Below are positions 225-51,115 of a DNA stretch of 64,000 nucleotides, one piece after another. A program made the translations under genes and the position numbers. The notes below the pieces were generated by a model. The model was not told the origin of the DNA and searched no databases. It worked only from the letters and a program-made list of their open reading frames with translations. Within the stretch, counting starts at the first letter, position 1; each line of letters begins with the position of its first letter. This DNA comes from Nemertoderma westbladi (taxonomy: Eukaryota > Animalia > Xenacoelomorpha), in contig JAUCBJ010000225.1 in the NCBI GenBank assembly GCA_032718475.1, positions 1 through 64,000 on the forward strand, in the 5' to 3' direction.

Positions 225-3200
225 TTACGTTATGGAGTCCCTAGATGTTTGAAGGATTAGGGAGGTGGTCGTGGGAAGAGAATCTTGCCTTCCACAGTTT
301 CCGGAGAGTCCTCCATTCCCTTCCGATAAACACAAACGACCGACTGGGTGATTGAGTCGCTGCATCCTGAATACAATTCCAGGTTTCCTCTTCGTCCTGG
401 AATAGTGACGATAGAAACATCGCTCAAAGTATATGACGGCGTCACAAAGCCGATTCCAGGAGCTATAGTGGTCCGTCGCTCTCTGCAGGAGAGGTGAGAG
501 TCCCTGAGAGACGTATGATGTTCCAGAGCTCCAATCGCTCTCTCTGATCTTCATGAAGGATCCACTCGCGGAGGGGAGGCCCAGATCCACGGCGTCGTCC
601 CTGGCAACATGTAATACCGACAGATCTATCCCGGGTTCAAATAACTCCGATCCACCCGTCCGGGTTTCAGGTTTGACTTTCTCCGCTCCCTTGGCTGGTC
701 TAATCTCAGTCGGAGTAAGATGGGGAGGCCATTCATTCTCCTTACTCAGGAAGTCGGGTTCACCTAACCGGTCTATAGTATCTGTCAGTTCTTGAGGAGT
801 TGCTCCTCTGGAAGCGATGTCCGTTGGATTAAACTTCTTGGGGCAATATCTCCATTGATCTACATTGGAGCTAAGATTGTCATTATCTGAGGAGTGTGGT
901 GTTCCCTCAGTTGGGTCGTCTCCCTCACTAGTATCATCTTCCCATTCACTCACCTGGCAGACGCGATCTTGAAGCAGTCTTTCCCTGAGCGTTCTACGGG
1001 AAGGTCCAGTAAGGTACCAACCTACTCTAGTTCTTACCGCATAGGTCTGTAGGGGCTGCGGTTGAGCAGGCCGTTTCTCTAATGTCTCCAGCGCCTCATG
1101 CGCGTTTTGGCCGATGAGTATTTGCACTCCAGGGTAATCAGTCTGGAATCGAGGTATGTTAAGATGTTGGATGCTCTCATCCTCGTCCCAATTATAAAGG
1201 TCTGCTTGAGTAGTAGCGAAGTTCTTTATAGCCACCATTTTCACTGACCTTATGCTATGTTCTCCTAGTTCGTCCTGGGGGGTGGACAACTCACCTATAT
1301 AATAGTCAGCTGTTATTGTAGATTTCCAAACTTGCATAATGCCTGACATGTTGAGCTTAGTTTGGAACTTGGGTTGTCCAGCAAATATATCTTCGGCTAG
1401 CTCTTTATCGATGAATGTTCCTGTGCTGCCGGAGTCCAGGAGGGCGTTCACTACATAACTCCGTTTAGGTCCGTGCACCCTTACCTGCACCACAGGAAAC
1501 TCTCGGATTCCTATATTGGAAGTTGGCGCTTTCCAAGATGGTTGTTGATCGGAAGTAGTTAAGGTAAGGTCGCTGTCTGTGTCTTTCTCATGTACGAGTG
1601 CTCGATACACTGCGGTGGTGTTTATTAGGTAACAGGATTCGTTTTGGTCGGAGAACTCGTCCGTATAGAATCCTTCCATCTCAGATTGATCAGTGTCGTT
1701 CACATCACTGAATTGGACATGTAGTTCGGACTCACTTACCTGACTCGGGCTGTTTCGTTCGAATTCCGTGTGCAACAAGATATGATGTTTTGCGCCGCAC
1801 TTTGCACACCTTGCGTCGGAGTTACAGGTTCGCCGTTGGTGTCCTCGTCTGAGGCAATTATAACACAACCGCTTATCCCACATGACTTCACGTCTATCGT
1901 TTAGTGATCTCCTCAGGAATTTATCACACGCATTTAAACGGTGGGGCCCGTCGCACAGCACACATTTGGGCTTGATGTTACTTACTTTAACATGTGCTGT
2001 GTGGTGCACACTTGTTCTTTCCTCGGGCTTTCTCACCTGAATTCTTTTAGGAGACGTGGGAGGAGTTTTTCTTACCTGTTCCCTCCTGTCATTTGTTCGA
2101 GACTTAAATTTAGTTACCTGATCTTTAGGCATTTTGTTCACGTAATAAGATCTATCCGTGTCTTTCCCGCTATCTTCTCCTTGAGAAGTCTGGCTTTCGC
2201 CGTCATCGGTATAACATACTGGTGTTACCTTTCTCCTAGAGACGGGTTTTTCACTTACCTTGTTTTCCGGTGTCTTCTCTCGGGACTGCTTGAGGAGTTG
2301 CAATTTCACTTCTCCATCCAAGAATGACATGAGATCAGCCATGGTAGGGTCTCGTCGTTGTTGTTCCATCATATAAAGTACTTTCTTATCCCAGCGTGTG
2401 CCTACCCCACCTTTCGGTAAAGTAGAAGCCACAGCTCCAATGACCATAGAACTTTGGTATTCATGAGACTTACCTAACCAATCTAATTGTCTACAGATCT
2501 CTTGAATCTCATCGGAAAACTCTATTATCCCACTGCTGATGAACTTTCTGGGCGCTACTAATTTTGCATATAAATACTTAGCGATATTATTCCTATTACC
2601 ATACCTGATGTTTAGTATATCCCAAACTTGTCTTAATCCGTCTGGATGGCCAATAAACTTTAACGCCATTAACTTGGGAGATCCTTCCAAGCACTCGATG
2701 AGGTATCTAAGTTTTTCTCCATTAGATAGTACAGAGTTCTGTATGTTATCTTTGTAATATTCATTAAAAGGTAACCATTTCATCTCATCTCCATTGAACT
2801 TGACGATCTCTCCAACCTTTACCGCTTGCCGGGCTTCGGTTCTAGCCATTTGACGCGTAAAACTTTCTTGGGCCATTGTGCTATTTAATATCGAGTTATC
2901 GGTATATAAATTTCTCTGATTATGATCAGTTCTATAGGGAATATCATTATCAACAGGTCTATAATTACCCTTAATAGGGTTCACTATAGGAGTTTCTACT
3001 TCGCTAGCAGTATAGATGCGTGTAGGCTCCACACCTTGCGCATGAGATACTTCAGACCTAACGGGTTGACACATTGTTACAGAGGGTGGTGGTATACCCT
3101 TTTGGGTGTTTACTAATTTATCGCGTTCAAGCGCGATACTTTGCTGCACTTCTTGCAACTCTAGCCTACTTTCCCTCACTGTTCCCTTTAAATGTTGGAC

Positions 3201-5288
3201 AGTCCCTTCCAACTCTCGGACCTGTTGGGAGGAGCGTATCTGATTCTCCTTCATCTCTCCAAGGAGAATATCCATCCCCCGCCGTCTCTCGTCTACCCAA
3301 TCAACCGCCGAAACGGGATCCGCCAACGTCGTAGCGGGCAGACAAGGGACAACGGGCGACAAATTCGGAATATTTCGCTCGGGGTCCAGGACCTGAACTG
3401 TCTCTCGGGCAGTTCTACGGGGCACAGGTAGCTTAGTGCTATGTAGAGGGAACTTATAGGTAGTCTCAGGGAGCACAGGTATGTCTATCACCGAAGGGGT
3501 GATTTCAAGAACAGGCCTAATTATTTCAGGCTCATCTACTATAGTAGGGAGTCTTTCTATTTTAATTATTGGGTCTGTGGGCTCTGTACTACCCAAGTTG
3601 GTGCTATTTAGTTGCCTTCTAACAGCTGGAGGCAAATCAGGCAATTTCTGCCGGTGGAATGTTCTTTTACGTCTACTTGGACGAGATCTATTTCCTTTGC
3701 CTTCAGTATCGGTGGTATCACCTTCCTCAGATGATGTATATCCCTGTCGTTTGGGAGTAGATCGATTCATCATCTGCATATTACTAGCTGTTAACTGTTT
3801 ATTTATGCAGTCTTGATTCTCCTGAATGTTTTCCAATTCTAATTGGGTGGTTTCTTCGGAAGCTCTCCGTTCTGCTTCTGCTACTGCCTCGACCGCTGCG
3901 ACAGCCGCCTTTCTTTCTGCTTCGGCCGCTGCTGCTGCCACTTTTCTTTCGGCTTCTGCCTCTGCCTCTGCCGCTGCCACTTTTCTTTTGGCTTCTGCCT
4001 CTGCCTCTGCCGCTGCCACTTTTCTTTTGGCTTCTGCCTCTGCCTCTGCCGCTGCCACTGCCGCTTTTCTTTCTGCTTCTGCCGCTGCCACTGCTGCTGC
4101 CACTGCCGCTGTCTTTCTGTCTTCTATACGTTTTTTCTTGATTTGTTCTTCTTGGTCTCTAGCGATGCGGAGTTGTTCATCGAATTTAGCTTGGTTCGCC
4201 GCTAACCTATCCACATCAATTGCATCCAACACACGCTGGGCTCCTTCACTATTAGGGCTAAGTCCCTCTAGCCTTCTCCTCAACTCTTTATCTCCCACAA
4301 AACGCTGATAGTCTGACAGATAGATATCAATGGCATCCTTCTTATGCGGTTTCTCTGCCGTCGCTTCACTTTCCACTTGGGAAAAAGTAGCGTCTGTTGA
4401 TTCTCCATGGGTTGAGCGCTCTTCCAACTGAGCTTTCCACTGAGCTGCTCCTTGAACCTGGCGACTCACCCTTTGAAACCAAGTCTTTACGGCAACTTGC
4501 AACGACGTGTCTTGCTTTCGTTTAGAAGCCTCTTCAAAGGCGGATAAGATTAGCCTAATCCGCAGAACTCTTTCTCTAACTTGATAAAGCAGCGATCCCT
4601 GCTCTTGAGGTCCTTGAGGTTGTTGAAAAAGTTGCTTTTCTATTCGCTCCATAGAGCTGAAGAATCCCTGTGCGTATCCGGCTGCGGACCTCTTCCACAC
4701 AGCTGGATCGATGGTTTCCTTGGCTACTCCCATCCGGTGTATGTCTTCCCAGGCAGCTTCTGATAAATCAAACGGGAGTCCGGGTCCGGGGAAGTTCCAT
4801 TGCGACTCGACAATAGACTTCAGTTCTTCACTAGTGTAGCCCGCGTAGCTATCTCTAGTTGTCCGTTGACTCCTCGCCCAATCGATCTGGTGTTCTTCCA
4901 CCGCGATCAATAACCCGGCGAGCACGGCTGCAGGAAGGATGAGAAGGGGATCCGTATAAACCGCATCCGTCATCTCTGCTCCGCTCTCGGGTGTCAGCTC
5001 TACAGTATCATCACTACTGGAGCTGCTGGGCCGCTGAGGAATAAGTTCTTGACTAGCGGGTTGTTGCTGTTCTGCTGCCTTTTGGTCCCGCTTGACCTGA
5101 GCTCGAGTGCCTATGATAGACCTACGATGTTGGACCAGCCTAGGTTCTGTTATTACTACTGGAGGGATGACCTTCCTCACAGTGGGAGGTGAACTGGATT
5201 TACGACCAAACGTTTGTACGTCTCTATCTGAGTCGCAGATAGTTACATCTAATAAACTGTCTGACAGGTTCTGCTTAGTATCAGACAT
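225..5288 (-). CDS. Gag-protease polyprotein, 1687 aa; RT/RNase H and integrase deleted in frame
   Basis: Three BEL-type Cys/His knuckles (CVLCDGPH..C, CYNCLRRGH..C, CAKCGAKHH) and aspartic protease LLDSGS; the protein then jumps to the RNase H tail (DQWRYC..NPTDIASRG) and the pol C-terminus; no YMDD or DDE core. Confidence 0.92.
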   Translation of the reverse strand: MSDTKQNLSDSLLDVTICDSDRDVQTFGRKSSSPPTVRKVIPPVVITEPRLVQHRRSIIGTRAQVKRDQKAAEQQQPASQELIPQRPSSSSSDDTVELTPESGAEMTDAVYTDPLLILPAAVLAGLLIAVEEHQIDWARSQRTTRDSYAGYTSEELKSIVESQWNFPGPGLPFDLSEAAWEDIHRMGVAKETIDPAVWKRSAAGYAQGFFSSMERIEKQLFQQPQGPQEQGSLLYQVRERVLRIRLILSAFEEASKRKQDTSLQVAVKTWFQRVSRQVQGAAQWKAQLEERSTHGESTDATFSQVESEATAEKPHKKDAIDIYLSDYQRFVGDKELRRRLEGLSPNSEGAQRVLDAIDVDRLAANQAKFDEQLRIARDQEEQIKKKRIEDRKTAAVAAAVAAAEAERKAAVAAAEAEAEAKRKVAAAEAEAEAKRKVAAAEAEAEAERKVAAAAAEAERKAAVAAVEAVAEAERRASEETTQLELENIQENQDCINKQLTASNMQMMNRSTPKRQGYTSSEEGDTTDTEGKGNRSRPSRRKRTFHRQKLPDLPPAVRRQLNSTNLGSTEPTDPIIKIERLPTIVDEPEIIRPVLEITPSVIDIPVLPETTYKFPLHSTKLPVPRRTARETVQVLDPERNIPNLSPVVPCLPATTLADPVSAVDWVDERRRGMDILLGEMKENQIRSSQQVRELEGTVQHLKGTVRESRLELQEVQQSIALERDKLVNTQKGIPPPSVTMCQPVRSEVSHAQGVEPTRIYTASEVETPIVNPIKGNYRPVDNDIPYRTDHNQRNLYTDNSILNSTMAQESFTRQMARTEARQAVKVGEIVKFNGDEMKWLPFNEYYKDNIQNSVLSNGEKLRYLIECLEGSPKLMALKFIGHPDGLRQVWDILNIRYGNRNNIAKYLYAKLVAPRKFISSGIIEFSDEIQEICRQLDWLGKSHEYQSSMVIGAVASTLPKGGVGTRWDKKVLYMMEQQRRDPTMADLMSFLDGEVKLQLLKQSREKTPENKVSEKPVSRRKVTPVCYTDDGESQTSQGEDSGKDTDRSYYVNKMPKDQVTKFKSRTNDRREQVRKTPPTSPKRIQVRKPEERTSVHHTAHVKVSNIKPKCVLCDGPHRLNACDKFLRRSLNDRREVMWDKRLCYNCLRRGHQRRTCNSDARCAKCGAKHHILLHTEFERNSPSQVSESELHVQFSDVNDTDQSEMEGFYTDEFSDQNESCYLINTTAVYRALVHEKDTDSDLTLTTSDQQPSWKAPTSNIGIREFPVVQVRVHGPKRSYVVNALLDSGSTGTFIDKELAEDIFAGQPKFQTKLNMSGIMQVWKSTITADYYIGELSTPQDELGEHSIRSVKMVAIKNFATTQADLYNWDEDESIQHLNIPRFQTDYPGVQILIGQNAHEALETLEKRPAQPQPLQTYAVRTRVGWYLTGPSRRTLRERLLQDRVCQVSEWEDDTSEGDDPTEGTPHSSDNDNLSSNVDQWRYCPKKFNPTDIASRGATPQELTDTIDRLGEPDFLSKENEWPPHLTPTEIRPAKGAEKVKPETRTGGSELFEPGIDLSVLHVARDDAVDLGLPSASGSFMKIRESDWSSGTSYVSQGLSPLLQRATDHYSSWNRLCDAVIYFERCFYRHYSRTKRKPGIVFRMQRLNHPVGRLCLSEGNGGLSGNCGRQDSLPTTTSLILQTSRDSIT

Positions 5289-7433
5289 GACTATGTATAC
5301 CGTTGAATGTCTACTGCTGTATTACAGTCTGAGTAAGTCTAATAACTCAGTATTAACTGCTAGCCTAGTAATTAATTACCGGTACTGCTACTCAGTGTAG
5401 CGTGATATATAATATATAAGAATACCGGTATGCTTATAGTATATATAACTATTATTACAGACTAGGTTTATCACAGAATACCGGTATAATTTTAGCACAA
5501 ATATATATAAATATATAATAGGCCTATCGGAATACCGGTATACAGCTTACAGTTTGTAGGATATATAATTCTGAAATAGAATTAATTACAAGTACCGGTA
5601 TAATTTCAGCCTAGATTTATAGAAATAAAGATAATAGGCCTATCGTAAATACCGGTATATCAATTATTTCAAATAATTGAATTTCTGTTACTTTAGGGTT
5701 ACTTTGTTACTTTACTTACTTTATTACCGTTATTTGAGCAGTAATCCAACTGATATTGAGACCTAATGGTTGTAAGGTAGGCCTACGATTTATAAATCGT
5801 TAGATTTGATTTATAATATATATATACCCGTTTTAATGGGTTTTGTCAATGTTTGAAATAAATGTTATTATTTCTGGGGAGTAATCACTACACAAAGCGG
5901 TGCGCTTTCAGTGAAGTGTTACGTACAGGACACTAAAACAAATAATACTAATTTACCTAAGTTACTTAATACTACAAATTACGTACAATTCGGGTGAGAT
6001 TACAATCTCTAAATAAACACAAAATTTTACAAAAACACAAATACGAATTTTTTAGGGTAATTTTACAAGAAGTCTACAAACCAGCCTAACAAAGGGTTAG
6101 AAAACTGGTTATTACACGGACAAGGTACTACGGTATTTGAAATAATAAGTAGTAGTAAATACACTGCGTTGTCTAGATAGGAAAATACCACCGCCTGACG
6201 ACCTATAGCCGTATCGCTATAGGTTCTACGTTATGTATCACGGAGTGTTCCTACCTAGAAGTTAATAGAGCTAATCGAATGTGCCTATCAACCACTTTAC
6301 AACACAGATATAATGTCTACACTAATTACTTCCGGAAAGCACTGTACACTAAACCCTAAATTAGGTACGAGTACTTGTACGACAGATAATCAGTAATTAA
6401 ATATACTTGAACAGCTAAAAGAACCACGGCATCTGCTGGAGTGACCGATGCACAAAATCACCAGTCTTTACCTACGCCGAGCAGCCCGTGTAGTACCGGG
6501 GTTAATTTAACTATAGCGGTATGTATAACAAACACAATTACTGTAGGAACAAACTTGGGGACTTGAATGTTGCGAATAATCGCATAAACTCTGAATAATA
6601 AATATTACGCTACGCGTACAAACTACTCAAACAAAATACAGACCGAACACTGACAGACTACTATCAAGCCTAAACAAACCACGGTATATGCAGACTCCGA
6701 AATGATTAGGGAGTATGCGCTCTAACCCAGTAGTGCGACTTATTCTTTAGTCGGGGGTTTACCTTACAGCTTTGCTGCCCCTACTGCCTAATCGTACTTA
6801 ATCGGACAGATGATCTACACACGCGGCAATCCGTTCAGACTTAATAACAGCCAGACAACTATCCAGCCTACAAATTATCTAAATAAAATTATACGCTACC
6901 CGTACAGACTTACACAAACAAAGTACAGACTAAACGATGGCAGACTACTCTCAAGCCTAAATAAACTACAGGACATGCAGACTCCGAAATGATTAGGGAG
7001 TATGCGCTCTAACCCAGTAGTGCGACTTATTCTTTAGTTGGGGGTTTACCTTACAGCGTGGCTGCCCCTACTTCCTAACCGTACTTAATCGGACAAGTGC
7101 TCTACACACACTGCAATTCGTTCGGACTTAACAGCAATCAGACAACAGCTCAGCCTACAAATTGTCTGTACAATCTGATCAGGTTTACACGCCTTCTGTT
7201 CAATACTGGCCTACAAACAAATAAAACTGACAGAAATAGGCCTAAGTAAAATCCCAATAAAAACCAGGCGTCCCCGATTAATTATTAAGACCTACCGGCA
7301 TATATAATCAAATCGAATAATACTGCTGTACTTATACGGAAGTAGGTACCGGTCCGGATGATCAGGCAGTCAGGCCTACTGGTTACCGGTCGACCGATAC
7401 TTTCGACTTTATTGCTTACTGCAATAAAGAAGC

Positions 7434-7445
7434 TATATCCTTTAA
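7434..7445 (-). promoter_or_regulatory. Non-tRNA primer-binding site of A (TTAAAGGATATA), complementary to its own LTR at 8227-8238
   Basis: Abuts the LTR end; plus-strand TATATCCTTTAA (7434-7445) is the perfect inverted copy of TTAAAGGATATA (8227-8238). Confidence 0.75.
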
Positions 7446-8705
7446 TGTTCGCGCTTTCAGACCTTTGGCAGTTTAACCCACCAAATTAAGATGTCTTCTA
7501 AATATTAAATCTGCTTTTAGTCTATGACAAGTATTTGATTCACTACACTAGTCGAAACCAATCCGTGCGCGACCATTCACCCGCTGGATATTCCCGGGAG
7601 ATTGGGTTCGACGGTTTAATTTTTATTGCTATGTAAGCCTAATGTATTATTCGACTGACAGTACTATATAATCTCTGACAATATTATTCACCTTCGGTAA
7701 TATTAACAGTTCCTTTAGGACGTGGCGCTTTATCTATATAAACAGAGTTATGACTTAAACTACTCACAACGATATGGCTTAATTATAATTCACATATATG
7801 GCGCATTCTTTAGGAATTGCTTCTTTAACAGACTCACTCATACACAATGCTGCACAATACTGCACACTAATCTGCCAATCTTCACTGAATTTAGTCACAT
7901 ATAAAAGGAACACAGACTGAATCATGTAGGGTCTATCAAATAACATTAGATTCACTTCAAACCACTTTAACATAAGTCACAATCGTTTATTTGTAACCCT
8001 TCTCTCTTACCTTAGGTATATCAAGAATATTGGGTTTAGGGGTTGTTTATCGTTATTCCAAATATAATTATTCATCAACCATATTATGAAGAACTGACGG
8101 TAAATAGCAGTATAAAACAACAATGAAAACTCTGATTGTTATGAGTTTGCAATGTTTCAGCAGTCAGCATGTATGATCAGTCAGCAGTCATCAGGTATGT
8201 TAAATTGCAGTAGTCAGTTTGTTTTGTTAAAGGATATATGCCCTTTATAATTAAACCTACTAGTGTACGACTAAAAAGCAGTACAGCACAAAAAACTTCT
8301 AAGCCGTTCTTTCTTGGGCTCAAGACTGAATGTAAACACTGCACATAGGCATTGCGTCATTTCTCGGAAATTTTCTGTACAAGGAGCCACAAAAACGCTC
8401 TCATTGGCTGACTGAACTGAGAGACGCCGTAGAACAAAGGAAATCAACACGTATGAATGTCAGCTGTTAACCGTAGTCATAGTAACTACTGTTCAAGAGT
8501 AGCTATCACCCCTTTGCGTCACGAATTGCCATAGAATCACAAAATATGCCTTTCACAGTACACATACGGAGGAAATAGGTCTTAGATCCTCTAAAAACAC
8601 CGATACAGCAATAATACGGTCTCTTACACTTATTAAATCAACTACAGAGTATTTTAATGTAAAAGATAATAAAAATAACGGGGCAATTCAGCAAAGGCTT
8701 TTACA
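7446..8705 (-). repeat. 5' LTR of element A (divergent subfamily, ~1260 bp)
   Basis: Minus strand begins TGTAAAAGCC and ends AAAGCGCGAACA, matching the B termini TGTAAAAGCT...AAAGCGCGTACA; patchy internal homology. Confidence 0.85.
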
Positions 8706-10292
8706 AAGATCAAACGGCCCAGTAGAACCAAAGTTATTGAGGTTTTAAAATAGTCACTCGAAAATTTCAAATTCACTTGGTCACATAGTCTAGTGGTTAT
8801 CAATCACGTTAATGAAACCTAAGTTCGCGGGTACGAAATCCAATATTGACCTGACCATTCTTAATTTTTTGTAAAAAAATTTTTTTTTTATATTTTCACT
8901 AAAATCGCTCTAACTTCGGTTCTGGTGGTCCAAATTCAATAAAATTGGTATATTCTTTGCCGTAATTTTTTTTTCTATCTTTTGAGAGGGGGTCATTTTT
9001 GGCCCCAAAAAAAATGAAAAAAAAGGGCCAAAATTACGTGATATTTTTCGACCTTTAAAATTCGTAATTTTAATTATAAATGTTAAGAAAAAAGATAGCG
9101 GATGTAATTTGCTAAATCTTAAATGTACTGTTGGCGCAATACGCTAAATTATCATAGAGTAGCGATTTACTAAAAAAAAAAATTTTTTCGTCCCTTTTTT
9201 TAAATATTTTATTTCACACGATCGTCTGCCGCACCAGTTGTATAACAGCTAATGCGCTGTAACTAACGCTGTTAGATAGATAATTTAACGCACTATAAGT
9301 CTGTGTAAACAAATCTCCCGTAAGTTAATTAGTTTTCGAGCTAGATGATTTCCCGCGAAGCGAGTTTGAAGGGCGAAATTTAATTTTTGGCCCTCATTTT
9401 TTTAATAGCATCCGCGGAGGAAAACCGATAGCATATTTGAATTCCCCGTATCGATATTGACCGTATAAAATGTACCTTAACCAACTAAAGTGAAAAATAA
9501 AAAATTATTCGATAAAAACTATTTTTCATATTCTGGCCCTCTTTGGCCCCTATTGACGACATATTTGTTGTACCCCCACTCGATAGGAACGTAGCCCCAA
9601 TGGTCTTCTACGAGTTTCAAAAAAGAATTAGTGGAATCCTACCCGCGTTGTCAAATTAAACATTTCGGAAATAAAATTTTGAAAAAAGACGGACAAAAAC
9701 GTAGAAATTTACGGCCCCTTTTTCCACCCGAAATTTTAATAAATATCTTACCTCCATTCGATACGAAGGTAGTACCACTCTTCCCCTTTCCAACCGCGTT
9801 ACTTTCGTCCCCGGACGATTAATATTAGCCGAGTTATAGCGGATCCCGCAAAGTCATTTTGTCCGTTTTTTCAACTTTGACGGACAATAGACGGAAAACA
9901 AGCCCGGAGGCGGGGTATTCCAAGATGTGGAAACGTCTAATTTAGACCCCCTCTTTCGATTCTCGGTGTCTCTGGATGCGTCAAATAGAGGTTTTTTAAG
10001 AGTGCTAGTGAAAAAAAGACAAAAAAACCAGACAATTGTCCGTCATGTCCGTCAAAACGATAGATTCGCTAAAAGCTCTGAAGAATCTTATTTTTTTGGC
10101 ATTACGCGTCCCCCCTCGAAAAATCAAGAAAATCGTACCTCTGGAAATAGGTCGAATGGGGGGGGGGGGGGGGGGGACACGGTTTTCGCAGTAACTACGC
10201 GTCCAGTATGTAGACTGCGTCCTTATAGGGGCGGCGAATTCACCTCACTCAACGCCGCCCTTACTGCATGTTTTTAAAAATATTTCTTCCCA
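8706..10292. repeat. Non-coding interspersed repeat G, copy 1 (probable non-autonomous DNA-type element); target of element A
   Basis: Near-identical to 42578-44118; hairpin GGGCGGCG...CGCCGCCC near 10229-10260; no credible ORF. Confidence 0.75.
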
Positions 10293-10739
10293 CCAAGGTG
10301 GACCCAAAATGAAGTTATACTTAAAGAAAGACCACGAGGTAAAGGTAAAAGCATGGAGGGGGGTGGGGGGGGGGGGGGGGTATGCGTCCAATGACACGAG
10401 GGGAGATGAACTGGACTCGTTAATTTTATATTACTCGAAATTTTATGTAATATATTTTCGCTCCCAGTCTATATACCGATAACCCATTAATATTAATATA
10501 TACTACTCAGTCGTTTGTACATAATACGAAGTCTGTAAGTTATAGTCACCGAAACATTTCAGCTCTGAAATTATAATATATGAATCAAGGATGTCTCTCT
10601 TATGATCTACATAGAATAGATATGGTTATTGATACTGTTACATTTGTGATAATGGATTCTAGGTTTCTTTCACTGGTAAATCCCTATAAATGTTGAAGTA
10701 ATAAAATTTAATTACAGAACCATAGTTCGAAGATCAGCT

Positions 10740-12005
10740 TGTAAAAGCTTCTGTGGGATATAACTGGCCCTTTTGCTTCGCAATCCAGTTTCCCCCCTAG
10801 GCGCTGGAATACTCTAAAAGGCTCTATAACTATATATATTCCCCTCGCCCGCAAGGTACCGTTATAGGTGTTTTAACGGACATAAAAGTCATTCTGCTAT
10901 ATACGTGTTTTGGCGGACATGGTAAGGCAAAAAACCTGCAATGCACCAAATACCTGTCACAGCTTAGCCGTGATGATTCAGATTGCGACATCTAGCAGCT
11001 GGTTGCTGGCATGGAAACAGCCATTGGACGCATGGTTCTTTGTTTGGCTTGAGCCAATCAGAGCGATTTTTTCTGTCGACGTGTAGATATTCAGCCGATG
11101 ATACTAGGAGTGTTCAGTCTTACTGTTTTTTGTGATACCGTTTTGTTGTTGCTATCTAGGCCAGGAACACCGGCTCTAGAGTCAATTCGTTTTCATACTT
11201 TAGAAGAAACATTAGTAGGCTTAAGATTATAGAGCGTATAACTGTTATCAGTTCTTAACATATCATATCACATATCGGTCTTGTCACATCTTGTCATATC
11301 ATATCTTAACCTACCGTCTTAATGCTGTTTACTGTTGTGTTTTGGTTGAATATTATTTGGAGAACATATATAAAGAACCCAAATTTCCCAATTTTCTTGA
11401 TACACTACAGGTTAGAGAGACGGGTTATATATAGCGATTGCGACTTATATTATTGTGGTATGTAGTGAATTTAATGCTATTTGATAAGCCCTACATGAGT
11501 CCATTGCTGTTCGCTTTATATATGATAAAATTCATTGACGGTCGGCAAATTAGTGAGCAGTATTGTGTGTTACCGGTAGTGTGCATGATTGTGACTGATA
11601 ACTAAGCATTTCCTAAAGAATGCGCCTCATACGTGAATCATAAGCCTTACCGACTTACCGTTGTGATTAGTATAAGTCATATCTCTGTTTACCTAGATAG
11701 AGCGCCACGTCCTGAAGGAACTGTTAATATTTCCCGAAAGTGAATAATATTAGTCAGAAATTAATTATTAACTATCAATCGAATAATACAATACAGTAAG
11801 CTTACACTGCAATAATAATCTAAGCCCTCAGAATCCAGTCTCCTGGGTATATCCAGCGGGTGAATGGACGCGCACTAGGCTGGCTTCTGCTAATGTTGTG
11901 TTTATTGGTATTAAATATTTGTCATCTTCTAAAGTCTATTTATAAACCAAAAGACATATAAATTTTGGCAGGTTAAACTGCTAAAGGTCTTCAAAAGCGC
12001 GTATA
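10740..12005 (+). repeat. 5' LTR of element B
   Basis: Direct repeat of 40387-41652; terminal CA mutated to TA. Confidence 0.96.
11054..11121 (+). promoter_or_regulatory. Putative LTR promoter: CCAAT box and initiator TCAGT
   Basis: CCAAT at 11054 and TTCAGTCTT at 11113-11121; both are kept in the divergent A LTR (minus strand, 8403-8407 and 8322-8330). Confidence 0.5.
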
Positions 12006-12016
12006 ATAACAGTTAT
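12006..12016 (+). promoter_or_regulatory. Non-tRNA primer-binding site of B (ATAACAGTTAT), complementary to LTR 11238-11248
   Basis: Abuts the LTR end; lacks TGG; reverse complement ATAACTGTTAT lies at 11238-11248. Confidence 0.75.
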
Positions 12017-14241
12017 TGACTTTATTGCAGTAAGCAATAAAGTTGAAAGTACCGGTCGGCCGGTAAACCTGAACCGGTACTTCTGTAGGTCAGTAGGCCC
12101 AACTGCCAGAACCGGTACTGCTCTAGGTCCGTAGGTCCAACTGCCAGAACCGGCACTTCTGTAAGTCCGTAGGCCCAACTGTCCTAACCGGTACTTCCAG
12201 TATAAGTACATTAGTATTATTCGATTTTGATTATTGTATACCGGTAGGTCTCGATATTAAATCGGGGACGCCTGGTTTTTATTGGGATTTTACTTAGGTC
12301 TATTTCTGTCAGTTTTATTTCCTAGTAAGTTAATATTGAGCTGAAGACGTGTAAGTCTGCTCAGATTGTTCAGATAACTGTAGGCCGGACTGTTGTCGGA
12401 TTGTTGTTGGGTTTGGAGAGATTACGGCGTGTGTAGAGTTTGTCCGATAGAGTGCCAGTTAGTAAGTTGGGGCAGCCATAGCTGTAAGGTCAATCCCCTA
12501 TTAAAGAATAAGTCGTACTACCGTGTTAGAACGCATACTAACTAACCATTTTGGAATCTGCACATACTGTAGTTTATTTAGGCTTGACAGTATTCTGCCA
12601 GCGTTTTGGCCTGTGTTAGTTTGTGTGGTCTGTTCAGGTACCGTAATAGTTATTACTCAGATATTTTGTAGGCTGGATTGTTGTCTAGCTATTATTAGGT
12701 CTGAAGAGATTGCTGCGTGTGTAGAGTTTGTCCGATAGAGTGCCAGTTAGTAAGTTGGGGCAGCCATAGCTGTAAGGTCAATCCCCTCTTAAAGAATAAG
12801 TCGTCCTACCGTGTTAGAACGCATACTAACTAACCATTTTGGAATCTGCACATACAGTAGTTTATTTAGGCTTGGTGGTAGTCTGCCAGCGTTTTGGTTT
12901 ATATTTGTTTGAGTATTCTGTACGGGTAGCGTAATATTTATTATTCAGAGTTTATGCGATTATTCGCAACATTCATGTCCCCAAGTTTATTCCTACAGTA
13001 ATTGTGCTTGTTATACATACTGTTATAGTTAAATTAACCCCGGTACTACACGGGCTGCTTGGCGTAGGAAAAGACTGGTGACTTTGTGCTTCGGTCACTC
13101 CAGCAGATGCCGTGGTTCTTTTAACTGTTCAAGTATATTTAACTACTGATTATTTGTTGTACCAGTACTTGTACCTAATTTAGGGTTTAGTGTACAGTGC
13201 TTTCCGAAAGTAATTAGTGTGTAGTCAGTATATTTGTGTTGTAAAGTGGTTAATAGGCACGCTGGATCTGGTAGTCCGCGGTAATTAACTTCTAGGTAGG
13301 AACACTCCGTGATACATAACGTAGTACCTATAGCGATACGGTTATAGGTCGTCAGGCGGTGGTATTTTCCTATCTGGACAGTGCAATATATTTACTACTA
13401 CTTATTATTTTCAAATACCGTAGTACCCTGTCCGTTGTAACAAACCGAATTCTAACCCTTTGTTAGACTGGTTTGTAGACTTCCTGTAAAATTACCCTAA
13501 AAATTCGTACGTAATATTTTTGTTGTGTTTAATTAGAGAATTAATCTCACCCGTATCGTAAGTAATTTGTAGTATTAAGTAACTTAGGTAAATTAGAATT
13601 ATCAGTTTTAGTGTCCAATAAATAGCACTTCACTGAGAGCGCACAGCTTCTGTGTAATGACTTCCCCCAGAAATAATAACATTTATTTCAAATATTGAAA
13701 AAACCCATTTTAAACGGGTATATAAATATTATAAATCAACTCAAACGATTTATAAATAGTAGGCCTGCCATACAACAACTAGGTCTCAATATCAGTTGGA
13801 CTACTGCTTAAATAACGGTAATAAAGTAAGTTAAAGTAACCAAGTAACCCTAAAATATTCAGAAATTCAATTATTCTAAAATAATTGACATACCGGTATT
13901 TACCATAGGCTTATTATATTTATTTCTATAAATTTGAGCTAAAATCATACCGGTATTCTGTAATTAATTCTAGTTCATAATTATACTTATATATACTATA
14001 AGTGTACGCTGCATACCGGTATTCACGATAGGCCTATTATATATTTATATATATTTGTGCTAAAATTATATACCGGTACTCTGTGACAAACCTAGTTACA
14101 ATACTTATATATACTATAAGTGTATACCGGTATTCTAATATACTGCAATAAATTACCGGTACTAGGCCAACGGTCATACTGAATTACTAGACTTGCTTTA
14201 ACTGTAACTATAGCAGTAAGCATTCAACTGTATAGCTAAAC

Positions 14242-17200
14242 ATGTCTGACACTCAGCAAAACCTGTCAGACAGTCTAATCGATACAACCATCTGTGACAC
14301 AGATAGGAGTGTGGAGCGATTAAGAAAGGAGTTCAGCTCACCTCCTACTGAAAGAAAGGTCATCCCTCCAGTAGTAGTATCAGACCCTAAGCTAATCCAA
14401 CACCGTAGGTCTATCATCGGCACTCGGGCCCAAGTCAAACGGAACCAGGAAGCAGCTGTCCCACAGCAGCAACAGCCTAGTCAAGAAACTTGTTCCCAGC
14501 GATCTGATAGCTCCAGTAGTTCGGATACTGTCGAACTGACCCCCGAACGCAGATTGCAGATGGCGGCTAAAGCCTACTCGGACCCCCTTCTCACCCTTCC
14601 TGCCGCAGTGCTAATTACTATATTGATTGCGGTGGAGGAACATCAAGCCGATTGGGCGAGAAATAAGCGAGCAACCCAAGATAATTATGCGGGATACGCC
14701 AGGGAAGAATTGATGTCTATTGTCGAGTCACAATGGAACTTTCCCGGACCCGGACTCCCGTTAGATCTGTCCGAGGCTACTTGGGAAGATATACACAGGA
14801 TGGGAGTGGCTAAAGATACTATGGATCCAGCTGTTTGGAAGAGGTCGGCAGCAGGATATGTGCAGGGATTCTTCGGCTCCTTAGAGCGATTAGAAGAACA
14901 ACTGTTTCGACAACCCCAAGGACCTCAAGAGCAGGAAGAACTGCTATATCAAGTACGCGAAAGAACCCTACGCATTCGACTAATCCTATCAGCTTTTGAG
15001 GAAACTTCCAAAAGAAGACAGGACACGTCGCTGCAGGTTGCTGTCAAAACTTGGTTCCAGCGGGTAGGTCTCAAAGTACAAGAAACAGACCAGTGGAAAT
15101 CCCAGTTGTCTGAGAGACTAACCTATGACGAACCAACCGATGTCACCCTTCCTCAAGTGGAAGGCGAAGAGACCGCAGAGAGACCACGAACGAGAGACGC
15201 CATCGACATTTATCTGTCCGACTATCAGCGATTCCTAGGAGACGAAGAGTTGAGGAGACGGCTGTCTGGACTTTCCCCTAATAGTGAAGGAACCCAGCGT
15301 GTGTTAGACTCAATCGATGCTGAAATGTTAGCGGCTAACCAAGCTGAGTTTGATGAAAAACTTCGCCTCACTAGAGTCCAAGAAGAACTAGTAAAGAAAA
15401 AACGGATAGAAGACCGAAAGGCAGCTGCAGTAACAGCGGCAATGGCCGAAGTGGAAGCGGAAAGAAAAGCAGCGGCGGCAGAAGCAGAAGTAGAAAGAAA
15501 AGCAGCAGAAGCAGAAAAAAAGGCAGCAAAGGCAGTGGCAGAAGCAGAACGGAGAGCCTCTGAGGAGACTACCCAACTGGAGTTAGAAAATCTGCAAGAG
15601 ATGCAAGACAACATAAATAAACAGTTAACTGCTAGTCGAATGCAGATGATGAGACGATCTACTCCAAAACGCCAGGGATACACGTCATCAGAGGAAAGCG
15701 AAACCACCGATCCTGAAGGCGGCGGAAATAGATCTCGTCTAAGCAGGCGTAGAAAAACATCTCACCGCCACAAATTGCCTGATTTGCCCCCGGCGGTTAG
15801 AAGACAACTAACTAGCACAGACTTAGGTAGTACAGAACCCACAGAACAAATTATTCAGGTCAAAAGACTCCCTACAATAGTTGATGAGCCTGAAATAATT
15901 AGGCTTGTCGTTCCCAAAGCAACTTCTGTGCTAGAGACCCCTGTACTTCCAGAGCTTAACTCTAAATTCCCTTTACATAGTACTACACTGCCTGTACCCG
16001 GTAGAACAGTCCATGAGAATATCCCTGTCCTGGAAGCTGAGAGAGAAATCAAAGATTTGTCTCCCGTCGTCCCACGTCAGCCCGCTACAATGTTGGCGAC
16101 TCCCGCTTCGGCGGTCGAGTGGGTAGAAGAGGGACGGCGGGGGATGAATCTCCTGCTCGGACAGATGCAGGAGACTGTCTACCAACTTAAGGGAACAGTA
16201 AGGGAAGGTAGGGCCGAATTGCAAGAAGTGCAGCAAAGTATCGCGCTAGAACGCGACAAATTAGTCAATATCCAAAAGGGAATACCAATACCCCCTGTAA
16301 AATTGTGTCAACCTGTTAGGTCTGAAGTAGTACATGCGCAAGGTGTGGAGCCTACATGCATCTATACTGCTAGTGAAGTAGAAACTCCTATAGCAAACCC
16401 TATTAAGGGTGATTATAGACCTGTTATTAATGATATCCCTTATAGACCTGACAATGATCCGAGAAATTTATATAACGATAATTCGATATTAAATAACACG
16501 ATGGCACAAGAAAGCTTTACGCGTCAGATGGCTAGAACAGAAGCCCGCCAAGCGGTCAAAGTGGGAGAGATCGTTAAATTCAATGGAGATGAGATGAAAT
16601 GGCTACCTTTCAATGAATATTACAAAGATAGCATACAAAACTCTGTACTATCTAACGGAGAGAAACTTAGGTTCCTCATCAAGTGATTGGAAGGACCTCC
16701 CAGGTTAATGGCGTTAAAGTTTATTGGACATCCAGAAGGATTAAGACAAGTATGGGATACATTAAACATCAGGTATGGTAACAAGGATAACATAGCTAAG
16801 TATTTGTATGCAAAATTAGTAGCCCCCCGACACTTCCTTAGTAGCGGGATTATAGAGTTTTCCGATGAAATTCAGGAGATCTGTAGACAATTGGACTGGT
16901 TAGGTAAGTCTCATGAATATCAGAGTTCCATGGTTATTGGAGCAGTAGTCTCTACTTTACCAAAGGGTGGAGTATGTACACGTTGGGACAAGAAAGTGTT
17001 GTACATGAATGAACAACAACGACGAAACCCTACCATGACTGATCTCATGTCCTTCTTAGATGGTGAAGTAAAACTACAACTCATCAAGCAGTCCAGAGAG
17101 AAAACATCGGAAAATAAGGTAAGTGAGAAACCCGCTTCTAGGAGAAGAGTAACACCGGTGTGTTACACTGACGACGGCGAAAGCCAAGCTTCTCAAGAAG

Positions 17201-20200
17201 AGGACAGCGGGAAAGACATTGAGAGATCTTACTACGTTGGAAAAACCTCAAAAGATGTAAGTAAATACAAGGCTCGAAACAATGATAGGAGAGAACAGGT
17301 TGTCAAGACCCCTCCTCAGTCTCCTAACAGAATGCACCGAAGAAAACCCGAAGAAAAAACGAGAGTGCATCAAGTTACCCAAGGTAAAGTGAGTAACATA
17401 AAACCTAACTGTGCGTTGTGCGACGGGACCCACCGTTTGAGTGCGTGTGCTGAATTTCTAAAGAAATCCCTTGTAGACAGACGTGCAGTCGTATGGGACA
17501 AGCGGTTATGCTATAATTGCCTCAGACCAGGACACCAACGGCGAACCTGTTACTCCGATATAAAGTGTGCAAAGTGTGGCGCGAAACATCACATCTTGTT
17601 ACACAGTGAGTTCGAACGAGACAAACTGAGTCAGGTAAGTGAGCCCGAACTACATGTCCAATTCAGTGATGTAAACGACACTGATCAAGAATCTGAGATG
17701 GAAGGATTCTATACTGACGAATTCTCCGACGCCAACGAATCCTGTTATCTAATCAATACCACAGTGTATCGAGCACTTACTTATGAAAAGGACACCAACG
17801 ATGAGTTTCCCCCAACTACTTTTGCCAAACAACCATCTTGGAAAGCTCCAACTTCCAACGTAGGAATCAGAGAATTTCCTGTAGTGCAGGTAAGAGTTCA
17901 CGGTCTTAACAAAAGTTACATAGTGAACGCCCTCCTTGACTCCGGCAGCACAGGAACATTCATCGATCAAGAACTAGCCGAAGATATCTTTGCTGGACAA
18001 CCCAAGTTCCGGACTAAATTGAATATGTCAGGAATTATGCAGGTTTGGAAATCTACCCTAACGGCAGATTACTATGTAGGTGTGTTGTCCACCCCCCAGG
18101 ATAAGTTAGGAGCACAAGGTATAAGGTCGGTAAAAATGGTGGCTATAAAGAACTTCGCTACTACTCAAGCAGACCTTTATAATTGGGACGAGGATGAGAG
18201 CATCCAACATCTTAAGATACCTCGATTCCAGACAGATTATCCTGGAGTGCAAATACTCATCGGCCAAAACGCGCATGAGGCGCTCGAAACATTGGAGAAA
18301 CGGCCTGCTCAACCACAACCACTGCAAACCTATGCGGTAAGAACTAGAGTAGGTTGGTACTTTACTGGCCCTTCCCGCAGGACTCTCGCAGAGAGAATGC
18401 CACAAGAACAAACATACCAAGTAAACGATTGGGAAGTGGAGAGCAGTGAGGTGGACGAACTAACTGAGGGAATACCATACTCCTCAGATAATGACGACAT
18501 CTACCAACTCTTCGATGAAGAGAACACAATCGACCTACTTACAGAAACCCAAACTTGGAAAAATCAGGTGAACCTATGTCAACTGATTCGCCCATCGGAA
18601 CCCATCGCTTACAATGACGAACTCAACGATGAGATAGAGCGCTACAACGCTAGAACTCGGGACGAACTAGCCGTACGATTCTTTACTCAGGAACTGGTAG
18701 AGCCCAATTCATATGATAAGGCTCTATCGATAGAAGAAGAAAGAGCCAAGCAAATCCAGGAAACAACTACACGTTTTTTAAAGGATCAAGGTAGATATGA
18801 AATCGGCCTACCATTTCGAAAACGAGAACCTAGATTTATAAATAACAGACCCTTGGCAGAGAAAAGAATCGCTCAATTACATCGACGCCTTACAGCTAAT
18901 GCTTCAGCGAAAGAAATGTACCAAATTCAGCTGAAGAAATTTGTAACAAAGGGATACGCGGAGCGAGTACCGGAAGGAACACCAGTGACTGAGAGAACGT
19001 ATTACTTAACACATCATTACGTTCCCAAACCCGGTAAACCACACGAAGTACGAGTCGTATTCGATGGCTCCGCCCTATATATGGGCGGAGACTCAATTCC
19101 GAGTTGTTACCAGGACCCAACTTACTCCAATCTTTGTTGGGAATACTTTTAAGATTAAGACAATATTCCATCGCGTTCGCCTCAGACATAGAGGGAATGT
19201 TCTTACAAGTCAAGGCGCTGGATAGAGATAGAGACAGCCTGAGATTTCTGTGGTGGCCTGAAGGAGACCTCAATCAGAAACCGGTAGAGTACTGGATGAC
19301 CATCCAGGCTTTTGGAATCATATCAAGCCCTTCCAACGCCTGCTCCGTGGTGCGAACCACTGCGAATGACAACCGAGACTCCTTCTCAAAAGAAGTGATA
19401 GACAACATAAAACGCAATATATACATGGACGACAATTTAAGGTCCCTTCCATCAGTAGAAGAAGCCATAGCTGTCGCGAAAGGAATGGTAGATTGTTTGA
19501 AAAGAGGTGGATTTCGACTGACGAAATTCACTAGCAACTCCCGTGAGTTTCTGGAAGCCATACCGGTAGAAGACCGAGGAACGAAAGACCTAGACTTAAT
19601 AAAGGACGATCTTCCTGAAACCAAGACGCTTGGCTTGAAGTGGGACACTGAAAGAGACATCCTGTTTTTTCAGTTAAAACAGCGAGATAATCCAGTTCGG
19701 ACCAAACGGATTTGTTTAAGTATCCTGAGCACTTATTTCGACCCATTGGGATTTATTAGCCCAGTTATATTGATTGCTCGGAGTTTAGTACAACAAATGT
19801 GGCTTGAAAACCACTCATGGGACGATCCGCTTAAGGGTGAACTGTTAAAGAAATGGATGAAATGGGAAGATTCTCTACCTGCCATCGAGAACTTTATAAT
19901 TTCCCGTACCTATTTTGGCCATGTTCTTCCTACGTATTCCTATCAACTCCATGTGTTTGGAGACGCCAGCGACATGGGAATAGGTATAGTAGCATATCTG
20001 CGAGTCGAAACTCCGGATGGGATCAAAGTCGCCTTGGTTACCTCTAAGGCATTGATTAACAACAAGTTAAAGGTTCCTCGAGCGGAGTTAAAGGCAGCTT
20101 TATACGCTACAGCCATCGGACGGAACGTAACAGAACAAATCGACTATCCACTGGAGAAAACTGTTTATTGGACCGACGCTTTACTCGTGTTGGAGTATCT

Positions 20201-22306
20201 AACCAATGAAGTCTGTCAGTTCAGCGTTTTTGTTACTAACAGAGTAGCTATTATTCTTAGTCGCACAAAGATAGATCAATGGAGACATTGCCCTGGTACG
20301 ATTAATCCAGCCGATATCGCCTCCAGGGGAGCAACTCCACAGGAACTGATAGATACTCCAGATTGGTTGGGTGGACCCGACTTCCTGAGCAAGGAAGAGG
20401 ATGAATGGCCTCCTCACCTTACTACGGCAGAGATTAGACAAGCCAAGGGAGCGGAGACAGTCAAACCTAAAACCCGGGCGAGTAAATCGAAGTTATTTAA
20501 ACCGACTATCGATCTATCTGTATTACATGCTTCCGGGAATGATGCTTCGGATCCACAATCCCTCAACACAAAAAAGTCTGTTGTGGAAATTAGAGATAGA
20601 GATTGGAAATCTGGAATACCAGACGTCTCGCAAGGAATCTCACCCAGGCTGCAGAGAGCAATGCATCATTACAGTTCCTGGAATCGGCTCTGTAAAGCCG
20701 TCACATATTTAAGACGATGTTTTCATCATCACACTCTAGGACGAAGACCACTAGTGATAACGCTCCATTGACATCTGCACAAGTTCATGTTATTAAAAAT
20801 TTACCCAAATATAAGACATCTGACCGTTTTCTAAAGGAGAAAATTAGTCACCAGGAGCATGAAGAAACCAATAAGCAGATACTGAGACTCCTGCAATGCT
20901 ATGAGGATTCCGAAAAGTATTTCCTGTTGTTGAGAAATCCGCAGATGCGCTTAAGGGATCGATTCTCGAGCACAATGATAGATGGGTTAATACGTGTTGG
21001 AGGAAGACTCACCAATGCGCCCTTATCCTTTGACACCAAATTCCCCATACTTATTAGAAATCTTGAAGTACAAATCAAGATGATTGTAGATGTTCACAGT
21101 AAACTTTATCATGCTGGTAGAGAACGAATTCTTAGCGAAATTCGAACTCGCTATTATTTTGATAAACCCCGTAGAGCTCTGAACCAAGTTCTTAGGAACT
21201 GCATACCCTGTAGGAAAGCATTCAGTAGGCCTTTAACACAGCGAGAGGCAGAATTACCTAGGGAACGAGTAAGCTTCTATGAACCACCTTTTACTAATAC
21301 TGGTGTAGATTTATTTGGCCCTATTGAAGTATATCGTGCTAGGACTATAGTCAAGAGATGGTGTGTCATCTTCGTGTGCATGACTTGTAGAGCCATCCAT
21401 CTCGATATGGTGAACGATCTATCTACCAACAGCTTCGTCTTAAGTTTACGACGACAGATCGCTCGCTTCGGGACGAGTAATACCATGAGATCGGATAAGG
21501 GAACGAACTTCATTGGTGCCAACAACGAAATACAGGCTTACGTGAAGGACTGGAACCAAAGACAGGTGGACGACCAGCTAAGGATAACAGCGTCTAGCTG
21601 GACCTTCAACGCCGCCGACGCCCCTTGGTGGGGAGGAAGTTGGGAGAGATTAATTCGAAGTGTCAAAACCGCATTTCACTTTATAGTGCCATGCCGCGCG
21701 TATCTCACCGACGAACTTTTGCGGACGTTAATGGAGGAAATCGCTGCCTATCTCAACGAGAGACCGCTTATGCCAGTCTCATCGAGTCCCGATTCCCTGG
21801 AAGCGCTAACACCCGCGCACTTCCTACTGAAGAAACCTGTAGCCATGCTCCCACGATCGGAGATTGCCGACGGAGACGAATACTGCCGTCGAACTAGGCA
21901 ACTTATGCAGTTGCTATCCCGTCGTTTCGCTGACCATTTCGAGAAACATTATCTGCCCACGCTACAACTTCGAACTAAGTGGTTTGCGCAGCAAGAAAAC
22001 GTCAGCGCCGGAGATATGGTGCTTATTGTAGATCCAGACCTCCCACGTAAACGGTGGCAGACAGGTCGTATCATCGAGACCCACATCTCAGATGATGGTT
22101 TAGTACGCTCGGTAGAACTCATCGTCATGCGGCGTAACTTCAAGAAGCCAGGCATAATCTTTGAGATGCAACAACTCAATCGCCCAGTTGGTCGTTTATG
22201 TTTACTGGAAAGAGACAGAGAACTCTCCGGAAACTATGGAAGGCAAGACACTCTTCCCACGACCACCTCCCTAATTCCTCAAACATCTAGGGACTCCCCC
22301 ACGTGA
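14242..22306 (+). pseudogene. gag-pol of element B (Gag, protease, RT, RNase H, integrase), disrupted
   Basis: ORFs 14242-16686, 16687-19152, 19104-20771 and 20717-22306 are joined by a TGA at 16684 (TGC in A and C) and frameshifts near 19088 and 20732. Motifs: triple knuckle, LLDSGS, YMDD, FGDAS..AEL..TDA..NPAD, H..H..CxxC, VDLFGP..SDKGTNF..WERL. Confidence 0.95.
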
Positions 22307-26900: not shown

Positions 26901-26997
26901 ACCGCGCTTTGACCAAGCTCAGCCTAAGAGACTCAGCTGCAGAGAAGTTGGATAGCGCTGGATTCGCCATTTTCCAAGAGATTTGTATATCGAACTT
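23936..26997 (+). pseudogene. Extra ORF2 of B, 5' part: Zn-finger motif plus DEDDy (WRN/RNase D-like) 3'-5' exonuclease domain; interrupted by element C
   Basis: ORFs 23936 and 24767 share a frame with a single TGA (24593-24595) between them; motifs VVTYDNE, LPQPVLEMLFNERILKIGSAVYGD, FVDTQLIA, SIGHLAFQEYG, PLRPSLAIYTIFE. Confidence 0.75.
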
Positions 26998-28247
26998 TGT
27001 AAAAGCTTCTGTGGGATATAACTGGCCCCTTTGCTTCGCAATCCAGTTTCCCCCCAGGCGCTGGAATACTCTAAAAAGGTTCTCTAACTGTATATATATT
27101 CCCCTCGCCCGCAAGGTACCATTACAGGTGTTTTGACGGACATAAAAGTCATTCTGCTATATACGTGTTTTGGCGGACATGGTAAGGCAAAAAACCTGCA
27201 ATGCACCAACTACCTTTCACAGCTTAGCCGTGATGATTCATATTACGACATCTAACAGCTGGTTGCTGACATGGAAACAGCCATTGGACGCATGGTTCTT
27301 TGTTTGGCTTGAGCCAATCAGAGCGATTTTTCCTGTCGACGTGTAGCTTTTCGGCCGATCATAAGGAGAGTGTTCAGTCTTACTGTTTTTACTTGATACT
27401 TTGTTGTTATTGCTGTCTAAGCCAGAAACACCGGCTCTAGAGTTAGTTCTTTTCATACTTTGGAAGAAACATTAGTAGGCTTAAGATTATAGAGCGTATA
27501 ACTGTTATCGGTCCATATCAGTGCATATCACTGTACATATCGGTTCATATCATATCTTAACCTACCGTCTTAATAGTTTGCTGTTGTTTGGTTGAATATT
27601 ATTTGGAGAACATTTATAAAGAACCCAAATTTCCCAATTTTCTTGATACACTACAGGTTAGAGAGGCGGGTTATATATATAGCGATTGCGACTTATATTA
27701 TTGTGGTGTGTATTGAATTTAATGCTATTTGATAAGCCCTACATGAGTCCGTGGCTATTCTCTTTATATATGATAAAATTCATTGACGGTAGGCAAATTA
27801 GTGAGCAGTGTTGTGTGTTACCGGTAGTGTGCATGATTGTGGCTGATAACTAAGCATTTCCTAAAGAATGCACCTCATACGTGAATCATAAGCCTTACCG
27901 ACTTACCGTTGTGATTAGTATAAGTCATATCTCTGTTTACTTAGATAGAGCGCCACGTCCTAAAGGAACTGTTAATATTTCCCGAAAGTGAATAATATTA
28001 GTCAGAAATTATTTATTAACGATCAATCGAATAATACAGTAGGCTTCACTGCAATAATAATCTAAGACCTCAGAATCCAGTCTCCCGGGAATATCCAGCG
28101 GGTGAATGGACGCGCACTAGGCTGGCTTCTGCTAATGTTGTGTTTATTGGTATTAAATATTTGTCATCTTCTAAAGTATATTGATAAACCAAAAGACATA
28201 TAAATTTTGGCAGGTTAAACTGCTAAAGGTCTTCAAAAGCGCGTACA
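26998..28247 (+). repeat. 5' LTR of element C
   Basis: Direct repeat of 37867-39116; followed by ATAACAGTTAT (28248-28258), complementary to 27498-27508. Confidence 0.96.
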
Positions 28248-36738: not shown

Positions 36739-36894
36739 GGAGATTCAGCCTATCGCGCTCGGAACAGCGACAACGATTACATCCTAGAATGGTATCAAGG
36801 TCCACAGTGTCTCACTGCGTACGATTATCGCCATGCCAACTATGTTTCTCGGCAACGTTGTCGGTTATGCGCATCGAGAGACCATGTTACGCCC

Positions 36895-37788: not shown

Positions 37789-37866
37789 CTGTTTAGAGTA
37801 TTTACGTATATTAGAAACTGTGATTTTTGTATATTTATAGACTCAAATCCCATTTTCTGGGAGCGG

Positions 37867-45804: not shown

Positions 45805-45868
45805 CAGTTAATCAGTTAATCTGTATCTTGAACCTGCACAGTCCAACGGTGGACAGCAGTGAACGTTA

Positions 45869-51095: not shown

Positions 51096-51115
51096 GTCCA
51101 TTTAAATGTTGTTTG

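Follow-up and report, generated by a model that had tools for sequence, protein, structure and literature searches.

Self-priming of reverse transcription has been reported or predicted for the Tf1/sushi group, for Tcn1 and for the TAR lineage of copia elements (excerpts of PMC6317226 and PMC4600332), and Tf1 is the precedent (excerpts of PMC7175516, PMC4600332 and PMC5341516). For the TAR lineage of plant Ty1/copia elements, including Houba and Osr-1, it is predicted from a match of at least 10 nt that starts 0-5 nt after the LTR (PMC6317226, in the excerpts available). Belpaoviridae are described by the ICTV as primed by a host tRNA, with an 18-nt primer-binding site (PBS) for tRNA-Arg or tRNA-Gly, and comprise the named clades Sinbad, Suzu, Sparrow, Surcouf, Dan, Flow and Tas (PMC8742986). 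The original prediction for the DNA studied here, that its BEL/Pao elements prime from their own RNA, came with the remark that no such report was known. We likewise found neither self-priming nor a spliced primer for BEL/Pao in the literature searched; subscription journals, Repbase, GyDB and supplements lay outside its scope and may hold a prior mention. The available portions of PMC3601003, PMC5445492 and PMC13524379 contained no BEL/Pao self-priming or spliced primer, and those of the Sinbad paper (PMC554778), de la Chaux and Wagner (PMC3118150) and a mollusc survey (PMC6238403) contained nothing on PBS or priming.

The window, a 64,000-nt stretch of Nemertoderma westbladi DNA (contig JAUCBJ010000225.1, positions 1 to 64,000 of the forward strand), was a nest of related LTR elements, A, B, C, D and E. 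Element B (10740-41652, plus strand) was bounded by LTRs of 1266 nt each (5' LTR 10740-12005, 3' LTR 40387-41652) with 6 differences between them, and by the target duplication CAGCT at 10735-10739 and 41653-41657. Nested in B was element C (26998-39116, plus strand), whose 1250-nt LTRs (5' LTR 26998-28247, 3' LTR 37867-39116) had 4 differences and were flanked by the duplication AACTT. Element A lay on the minus strand, with its 5' LTR at 7446-8705 and its 3' LTR beyond the window start; over the last 600-700 nt, its LTR was 76% identical to that of B. The 3' LTR of D (61259-62528, minus strand) was present, and its PBS fell outside the window. The LTRs ended in TG...CA, and together with the 5-bp duplications of B and C and the short purine-rich tract before the 3' LTRs this is the structure expected of BEL/Pao. 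Family members had inserted into one another, C in the extra ORF of B (within 10740-41652) and D in the LTR of E (60620-64000). The leader (12006-14236 in B) exceeded 2 kb, held few ATGs (4-6 in A, B and C over ~2.3 kb) and contained 38-nt repeats and a 288-nt duplication. Elsewhere in the window, two LINE-type ORFs (RVT_1; endonuclease plus RVT_1) occupied 44093-50313 and were followed by tandem arrays of 35, 51, 18 and 14 nt at ~51000-60000.

The gag-pol of B (14236-22306, plus strand) was split into four frames with DUF1759, RT, Peptidase_A17/RNase H, an integrase zinc finger and DUF5641. Pfam assigned DUF1759, Peptidase_A17, Integrase_H2C2 and DUF5641, in the PR-RT-RH-IN order of BEL/Pao, and the listed relatives carried PF05380. 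The best matches of the RT-RNase H frame were 35-46% identical, and the named ones came from cnidarians, echinoderms, molluscs, chordates and fish. From these domains and relatives, we assigned the elements to BEL/Pao of an animal; the window domains were not those of Ty3/gypsy (chromovirus-type) proteins. When a quick tree was built without named reference elements, the window RT formed a long branch (1.61) among marine invertebrate and fish relatives.

Among the LTR elements of the window, only B carried RT, in its split frames, and integrase was absent from A and C. The gag-protease ORFs of C (30480-34712, plus strand) and A (225-5321, minus strand) shared one deletion junction (34340-34410 in C, 840-910 in A) that removed RT and most of RNase H, and their gag sequences were about 82% identical. 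Since A and C have no reverse transcriptase, they must be served in trans. The two appear to belong to an old non-autonomous lineage in which both PBS types are represented; its continued mobility is suggested by the 4 LTR differences of C. After pol, B had an extra ORF (24596-26997, plus strand) interrupted by the C insertion, with a zinc-knuckle-like part further on (39190-40308) and counterparts in C (36739-37788) and D (62607-63656). It had a Cys-rich, zinc-knuckle-like end and a weak likeness to DEDDy 3'-5' exonucleases, which comes from one relative and from an atlas value of 0.90 with 147 shared features. The relative P0125 (E 2.6e-6) had the same extra-ORF layout; the ORF itself gave no Pfam match and no homologue by word search. 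Extra ORFs of such kind are known in bdelloid LTR elements (excerpts of PMC5408684).

The PBS of B (12006-12016, plus strand) followed the LTR directly, lacked TGG and was the exact reverse complement of 11238-11248 (plus strand, LTR position 499), the candidate self-primer, which was repeated in the 3' LTR at 40885-40895. The same pair was present in C, where the PBS at 28248-28258 (plus strand) was the reverse complement of 27498-27508 (plus strand, LTR position 501; again at 38367-38377 in the 3' LTR). In A, the PBS (7434-7445, minus strand) was the 12-nt exact complement of 8227-8238 (minus strand, LTR position 469). The match thus started at offset 0 after the 5' LTR in all three elements, with a length of 11 nt (B and C) or 12 nt (A), and each element had a complement of its own LTR of at least 10 nt at 0-5 nt after the 5' LTR. 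No TGG was observed within 179 nt of the 5' LTR, the first one being at +268 in B, +274 in C and +180 in A, and an 18-nt PBS for tRNA-Arg or tRNA-Gly as in the ICTV profile was absent, no TGG occurring before +180. The coordinates and exact complementarity originally given for A, B and C were thereby confirmed, as was the claim that no element has a TGG-starting tRNA PBS.

The 3' ends of the A and B sites were both 35 nt from the start of a shared TAGTAGG.TTAA anchor (11213 to 11248 in B; 8262 to 8227 in A), showing that the two sites are homologous although MAFFT placed a gap there, and bearing out the claim that the homologous LTR position in A has become the exact complement of the A PBS. 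The two PBSs were identical at 7 of 11 positions. Positions 1, 5, 6 and 8 were changed on both sides and none on one side only, and position 12 paired only in A. The co-variation of PBS and LTR that had been claimed was therefore upheld, with four paired changes and seven pairs unchanged between A and B. The description of the A PBS as a different sequence was right for the four positions that differ, but the sequence is related to the B PBS. Cross-pairing of A with B was much weaker (-9.5 and -14.8 kcal/mol) than pairing within elements (-23.6 to -24.8 kcal/mol). By composition, the chance of an exact match anywhere in the LTR was 1.2e-3 for B and 3.9e-4 for A, and the observed length was reached by 0, 2 and 1 of 300 shuffled PBS regions for B, C and A, respectively. 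Since the LTRs of B and C were ~92% identical, they count as one observation, and the comparison within the window is one of two independent sequences; as B and C are near-copies with a near-palindromic PBS, A is the informative element. A single A-to-G change set the site in D (62050-62040, minus strand) apart from that of B; opposite a B-type PBS, the changed base would form a G-U pair.

Contigs from four public runs (X1, X3 and X5 among them), which are silent on RNA ends, were compared with B and A; the window may itself derive from X1. Family contigs followed B as far as the 3' edge of the site and diverged beyond it, with joints at 11247-11250 (X1 and X3), and in all four runs they parted from A at 8226, directly 3' of the A site. 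Neither the site nor the PBS of B held a variant among the 40 variants listed, beside which there were 54 further ones. A variant at 7441 in the A PBS, carried by 40 contigs in X1 (26% of depth) and 26 contigs in X3 (28%), turned the fifth base of this PBS into the B letter; the partner change expected at 8231 was not among the 40 variants listed for A, beside 32 further ones.

Complementarity in other subfamilies had been set beforehand as a test of self-priming. An alignment of 40 proteins was used to fetch 95 loci of distant relatives (the first fetch being the best 80 of 517), 39 of which had a repeat on both sides of RT and 17 both LTR 3' ends inside the contig. After L050 was dropped as not LTR-like, 16 loci in 14 families were retained; for L039, the start of the LTR was chosen by visual inspection. 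The RT of these relatives was 38-45% identical to that of the window. An own-LTR match of 10-15 nt was found in 13 of the 16 loci, that is in 12 of the 14 families with both LTR ends, and the PBS sequences differed among them. With the same freedom of search, the maxima were 7-10 nt for swapped PBSs and 4-6 nt for 3' flanks, and at most 1 of 300 shuffles reached the observed length. The spacer between LTR end and duplex was 0-4 nt in all 16 matching loci (3 in the window, 13 relatives). The original statement that the duplex ends at the LTR boundary, as a minus-strand primer must, was accordingly true of A, B and C, but these spacers leave no room for the "must". TGG occurred near the LTR in one of the 16 relatives, the insect-associated L092, outside the main clade. 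This locus sits in a 1.44-Mb Wolbachia record, and the contigs that carry L081-L095 belong to bacterial genome bins, where these BEL/Pao elements most likely represent contaminating host DNA.

Two forms of match were observed. It was contiguous in L043 (10 nt), L055 (11 nt), L076 (11 nt) and L078 (12 nt). In nine loci of eight families (L007, L008, L009, L035, L039, L047, L051, L081 and L084), a match of 6-9 nt stood right after a pyrimidine tract plus AG and grew to 11-15 nt once continued into the bases ahead of an upstream GT donor. The match in these eight families existed only across a predicted LTR intron with canonical GT-AG ends (e.g., in the 3' LTR of L035, 6341-6759), and between L081 and L084 two paired changes spanned the predicted splice joint. 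For many relatives, splicing of an LTR intron is predicted to build the primer, and in the window's family it is in one piece; a spliced primer was also sought in the window's own elements and rejected, the best match being 4-6 nt. Three loci (L015, L091 and L092) had no match by the rule. Post hoc, L015 and L091 could be made to fit, through a corrected boundary or through the 5' copy of the LTR; they were still counted as misses.

The splice rule was set after inspection of the relatives' matches and then applied to held-out loci whose LTR end was not independently fixed. A loose blind scan of 35 held-out loci did not beat its null. In a stricter scan of 28 other held-out families, spliced matches of 11-12 nt were found in 3 of 28 (L052, L068 and L088) as compared with 0 of 756 swapped pairs, and contiguous 10-nt matches in 3 of 28 as compared with 25 of 756. 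No spliced match was seen in the other 25 families; since the contigs of many held-out loci include just a portion of an LTR, these misses carry little weight, yet they count as misses. In the quick tree, with L091 left out, spliced and contiguous forms were interspersed, with 5 changes between them, at least 3 of which were forced by starred branches.

The predicted helix between site and PBS depended on where the RNA starts. When the RNA started at the site, the mean probability was 0.66 in B, 0.87 in C and 0.96 in A; it was 0.11-0.96 at -15, 0-0.08 at -30 and 0 from -45 on, including starts at -120 and -90. The helix was therefore predicted only for RNA starts within about 15-20 nt of the site, in foldings of 900-nt RNAs, which are unreliable. 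A motif scan detected a CCAAT box (11054) and an initiator-like TTCAGTC (11113) at 11054-11119 (plus strand), both present in A as well (8407 and 8330), and these candidate words point to a start ~120 nt (B) or ~90 nt (A) upstream of the site. In Tf1, the RNA 5' end serves as the primer; for the window elements, folding favours a start near the site, whereas the promoter words do not. The conserved block before the site (11213-11237, plus strand) includes a TATA-like word. As this word precedes the site by only ~11 nt, it would place the RNA start 3' of the site; of 13 relatives, only 1 had a TATA at -31 from the match.

A 9-bp hairpin directly 3' of the PBS (12020-12042, plus strand; 28262-28284 in C) had the same sequence in A, B and C and may be an RNA switch or a packaging signal. 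A pattern scan for it found nothing in viral or metagenome contigs, and protein scans of viral contigs found no relative. In Tf1-type self-priming, an additional, U5-IR-like stem stands beside the primer duplex. By duplex prediction, the TATA-like word can pair with the 5' arm of the hairpin in A and B, extending the primer duplex. The extension was not above control, as other 51-nt LTR tiles reached similar energies, and among these tiles the site did not stand out as the one best partner for a duplex with the PBS region. At ~11411-11971 lay a candidate intron whose donor-like word was shared by all seven LTR copies; six of them, all but A, also had an acceptor-like word. If real, this 560-nt intron would shorten the primer loop to about 200 nt; no such joint was seen in the contigs of X5, a run only guessed to be RNA.

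These results make self-priming the best reading, as originally proposed: because each PBS exactly complements a site in its own LTR, the likely primer of reverse transcription is the element's own RNA, supplied by the 5' LTR copy. Priming by the element's own RNA in any geometry is very likely. The boundaries, complementarity, paired changes, missing TGG and RT deletion were read directly in the DNA, and the steps of priming, cleavage and splicing are inferred. Transcription would begin in the 5' LTR, either at the site or upstream of it, and the site would pair with the PBS about 757 nt downstream. Cleavage of the RNA would follow at the 3' edge of the duplex, with the element's RNase H the probable enzyme, as in Tf1; from the 3' end so created, reverse transcriptase would copy U5 and R until it reaches the cut. 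For A and C, the enzymes would be supplied in trans. In the standard retroviral scheme, the primer is copied in plus-strand synthesis, and the PBS thereby takes on the sequence that served as primer; under self-priming, the PBS should follow the LTR site rather than a tRNA. Plus-strand synthesis here would copy the primer and reset the PBS to the LTR site, so that site and PBS would co-vary by themselves.

The alternative that survives best, though it is improbable, keeps self-priming and changes its geometry: the 3' LTR copy at the RNA 3' end, the other RNA packaged with it or a separate short LTR transcript would supply the primer, and the extra ORF with its exonuclease likeness may trim it. 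An RNA start downstream of the site, as the TATA-like word would give, favours this geometry, but the word is also readable as an RNA pairing partner. Extra ORFs like that of B have been suggested to process retroelement RNA 3' ends (PMC5408684, in excerpt), although the exonuclease assignment here is weak. Moreover, a cut at the site in the 3' LTR would be expected to separate R from the template that is required once the first jump has taken place.

It is less probable again that the pairing is real but structural, serving packaging, dimer formation or translation control, with something else as the true primer. The near-palindromic PBS of B and the conserved hairpin after it fit a structural role, and fungal GalEa elements have a conserved hairpin in place of a PBS and no known primer (excerpts of PMC5445492). 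However, the A PBS is not palindromic, no other primer site was seen, and the duplex of every matching locus lies close to the LTR end, where a primer must sit. Priming by a host tRNA half or fragment, with the LTR match arising as a by-product, is in our view unlikely. The B site, as we take it, resembles an anticodon loop with a GUU anticodon, which would speak for such a primer, but the A site presumably does not fit the pattern, which would speak against it. Priming by half-tRNAs exists in copia lineages (excerpts of PMC6317226). Four paired changes, and twelve families whose differing PBSs each match their own LTR, would not be expected from a fixed host RNA. No tRNA gene was found within the 64-kb window and 3 were found in 30 relatives' loci; Rfam gave no match in 7000-14300. 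Chance complementarity in AT-rich sequence, for which the AT-rich 11-mer, the B/C near-palindrome and the shuffles that reach 11 nt for C could be cited, is largely excluded already by the four paired changes at the homologous position in A and by the matches in the related families, and is most improbable.

With moderate confidence, we propose that a large marine-invertebrate and fish branch of BEL/Pao swapped tRNA priming for self-priming, and that in much of this branch host splicing of an LTR intron builds the primer and so gates reverse transcription; the window family would be an intron-free form of it, with RT-less members that are primed in trans. If this is true, self-priming extends to a third LTR superfamily, and the ICTV view of Belpaoviridae as tRNA-primed would need correction. 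The lack of a recognisable PBS in these elements would be explained, and annotators would gain a simple rule. The elements would be expected to escape control by tRNA supply or tRNA fragments, and the split form in the relatives would tie replication to splicing, for which no precedent was found in the literature searched.

Compared with known systems, the window elements share with Belpaoviridae the LTRs, purine tract, 5-bp duplication, PR-RT-RH-IN order, DUF1759, Peptidase_A17 and DUF5641, and differ in the absence of a tRNA PBS. Fungal GalEa copia elements likewise have no tRNA PBS and a conserved hairpin by the LTR; however, no LTR complement was found in them by their authors, whereas the window elements possess one (excerpts of PMC5445492). 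The TAR rule holds for the window elements, but TAR belongs to a different superfamily and kingdom, and its self-priming is likewise a prediction only. Tf1 and Tf2 of Schizosaccharomyces pombe, Tj1 of S. japonicus and the Tf1/sushi and Tcn1 elements of Ty3/gypsy also have no tRNA PBS, and ~11 nt after their 5' LTR complement their own LTR (PMC7175516, PMC4600332 and PMC6317226, in excerpt). The elements are thus a BEL/Pao variant that departs from the family description, probably Tf1-like in working and outside the Tf1 group.
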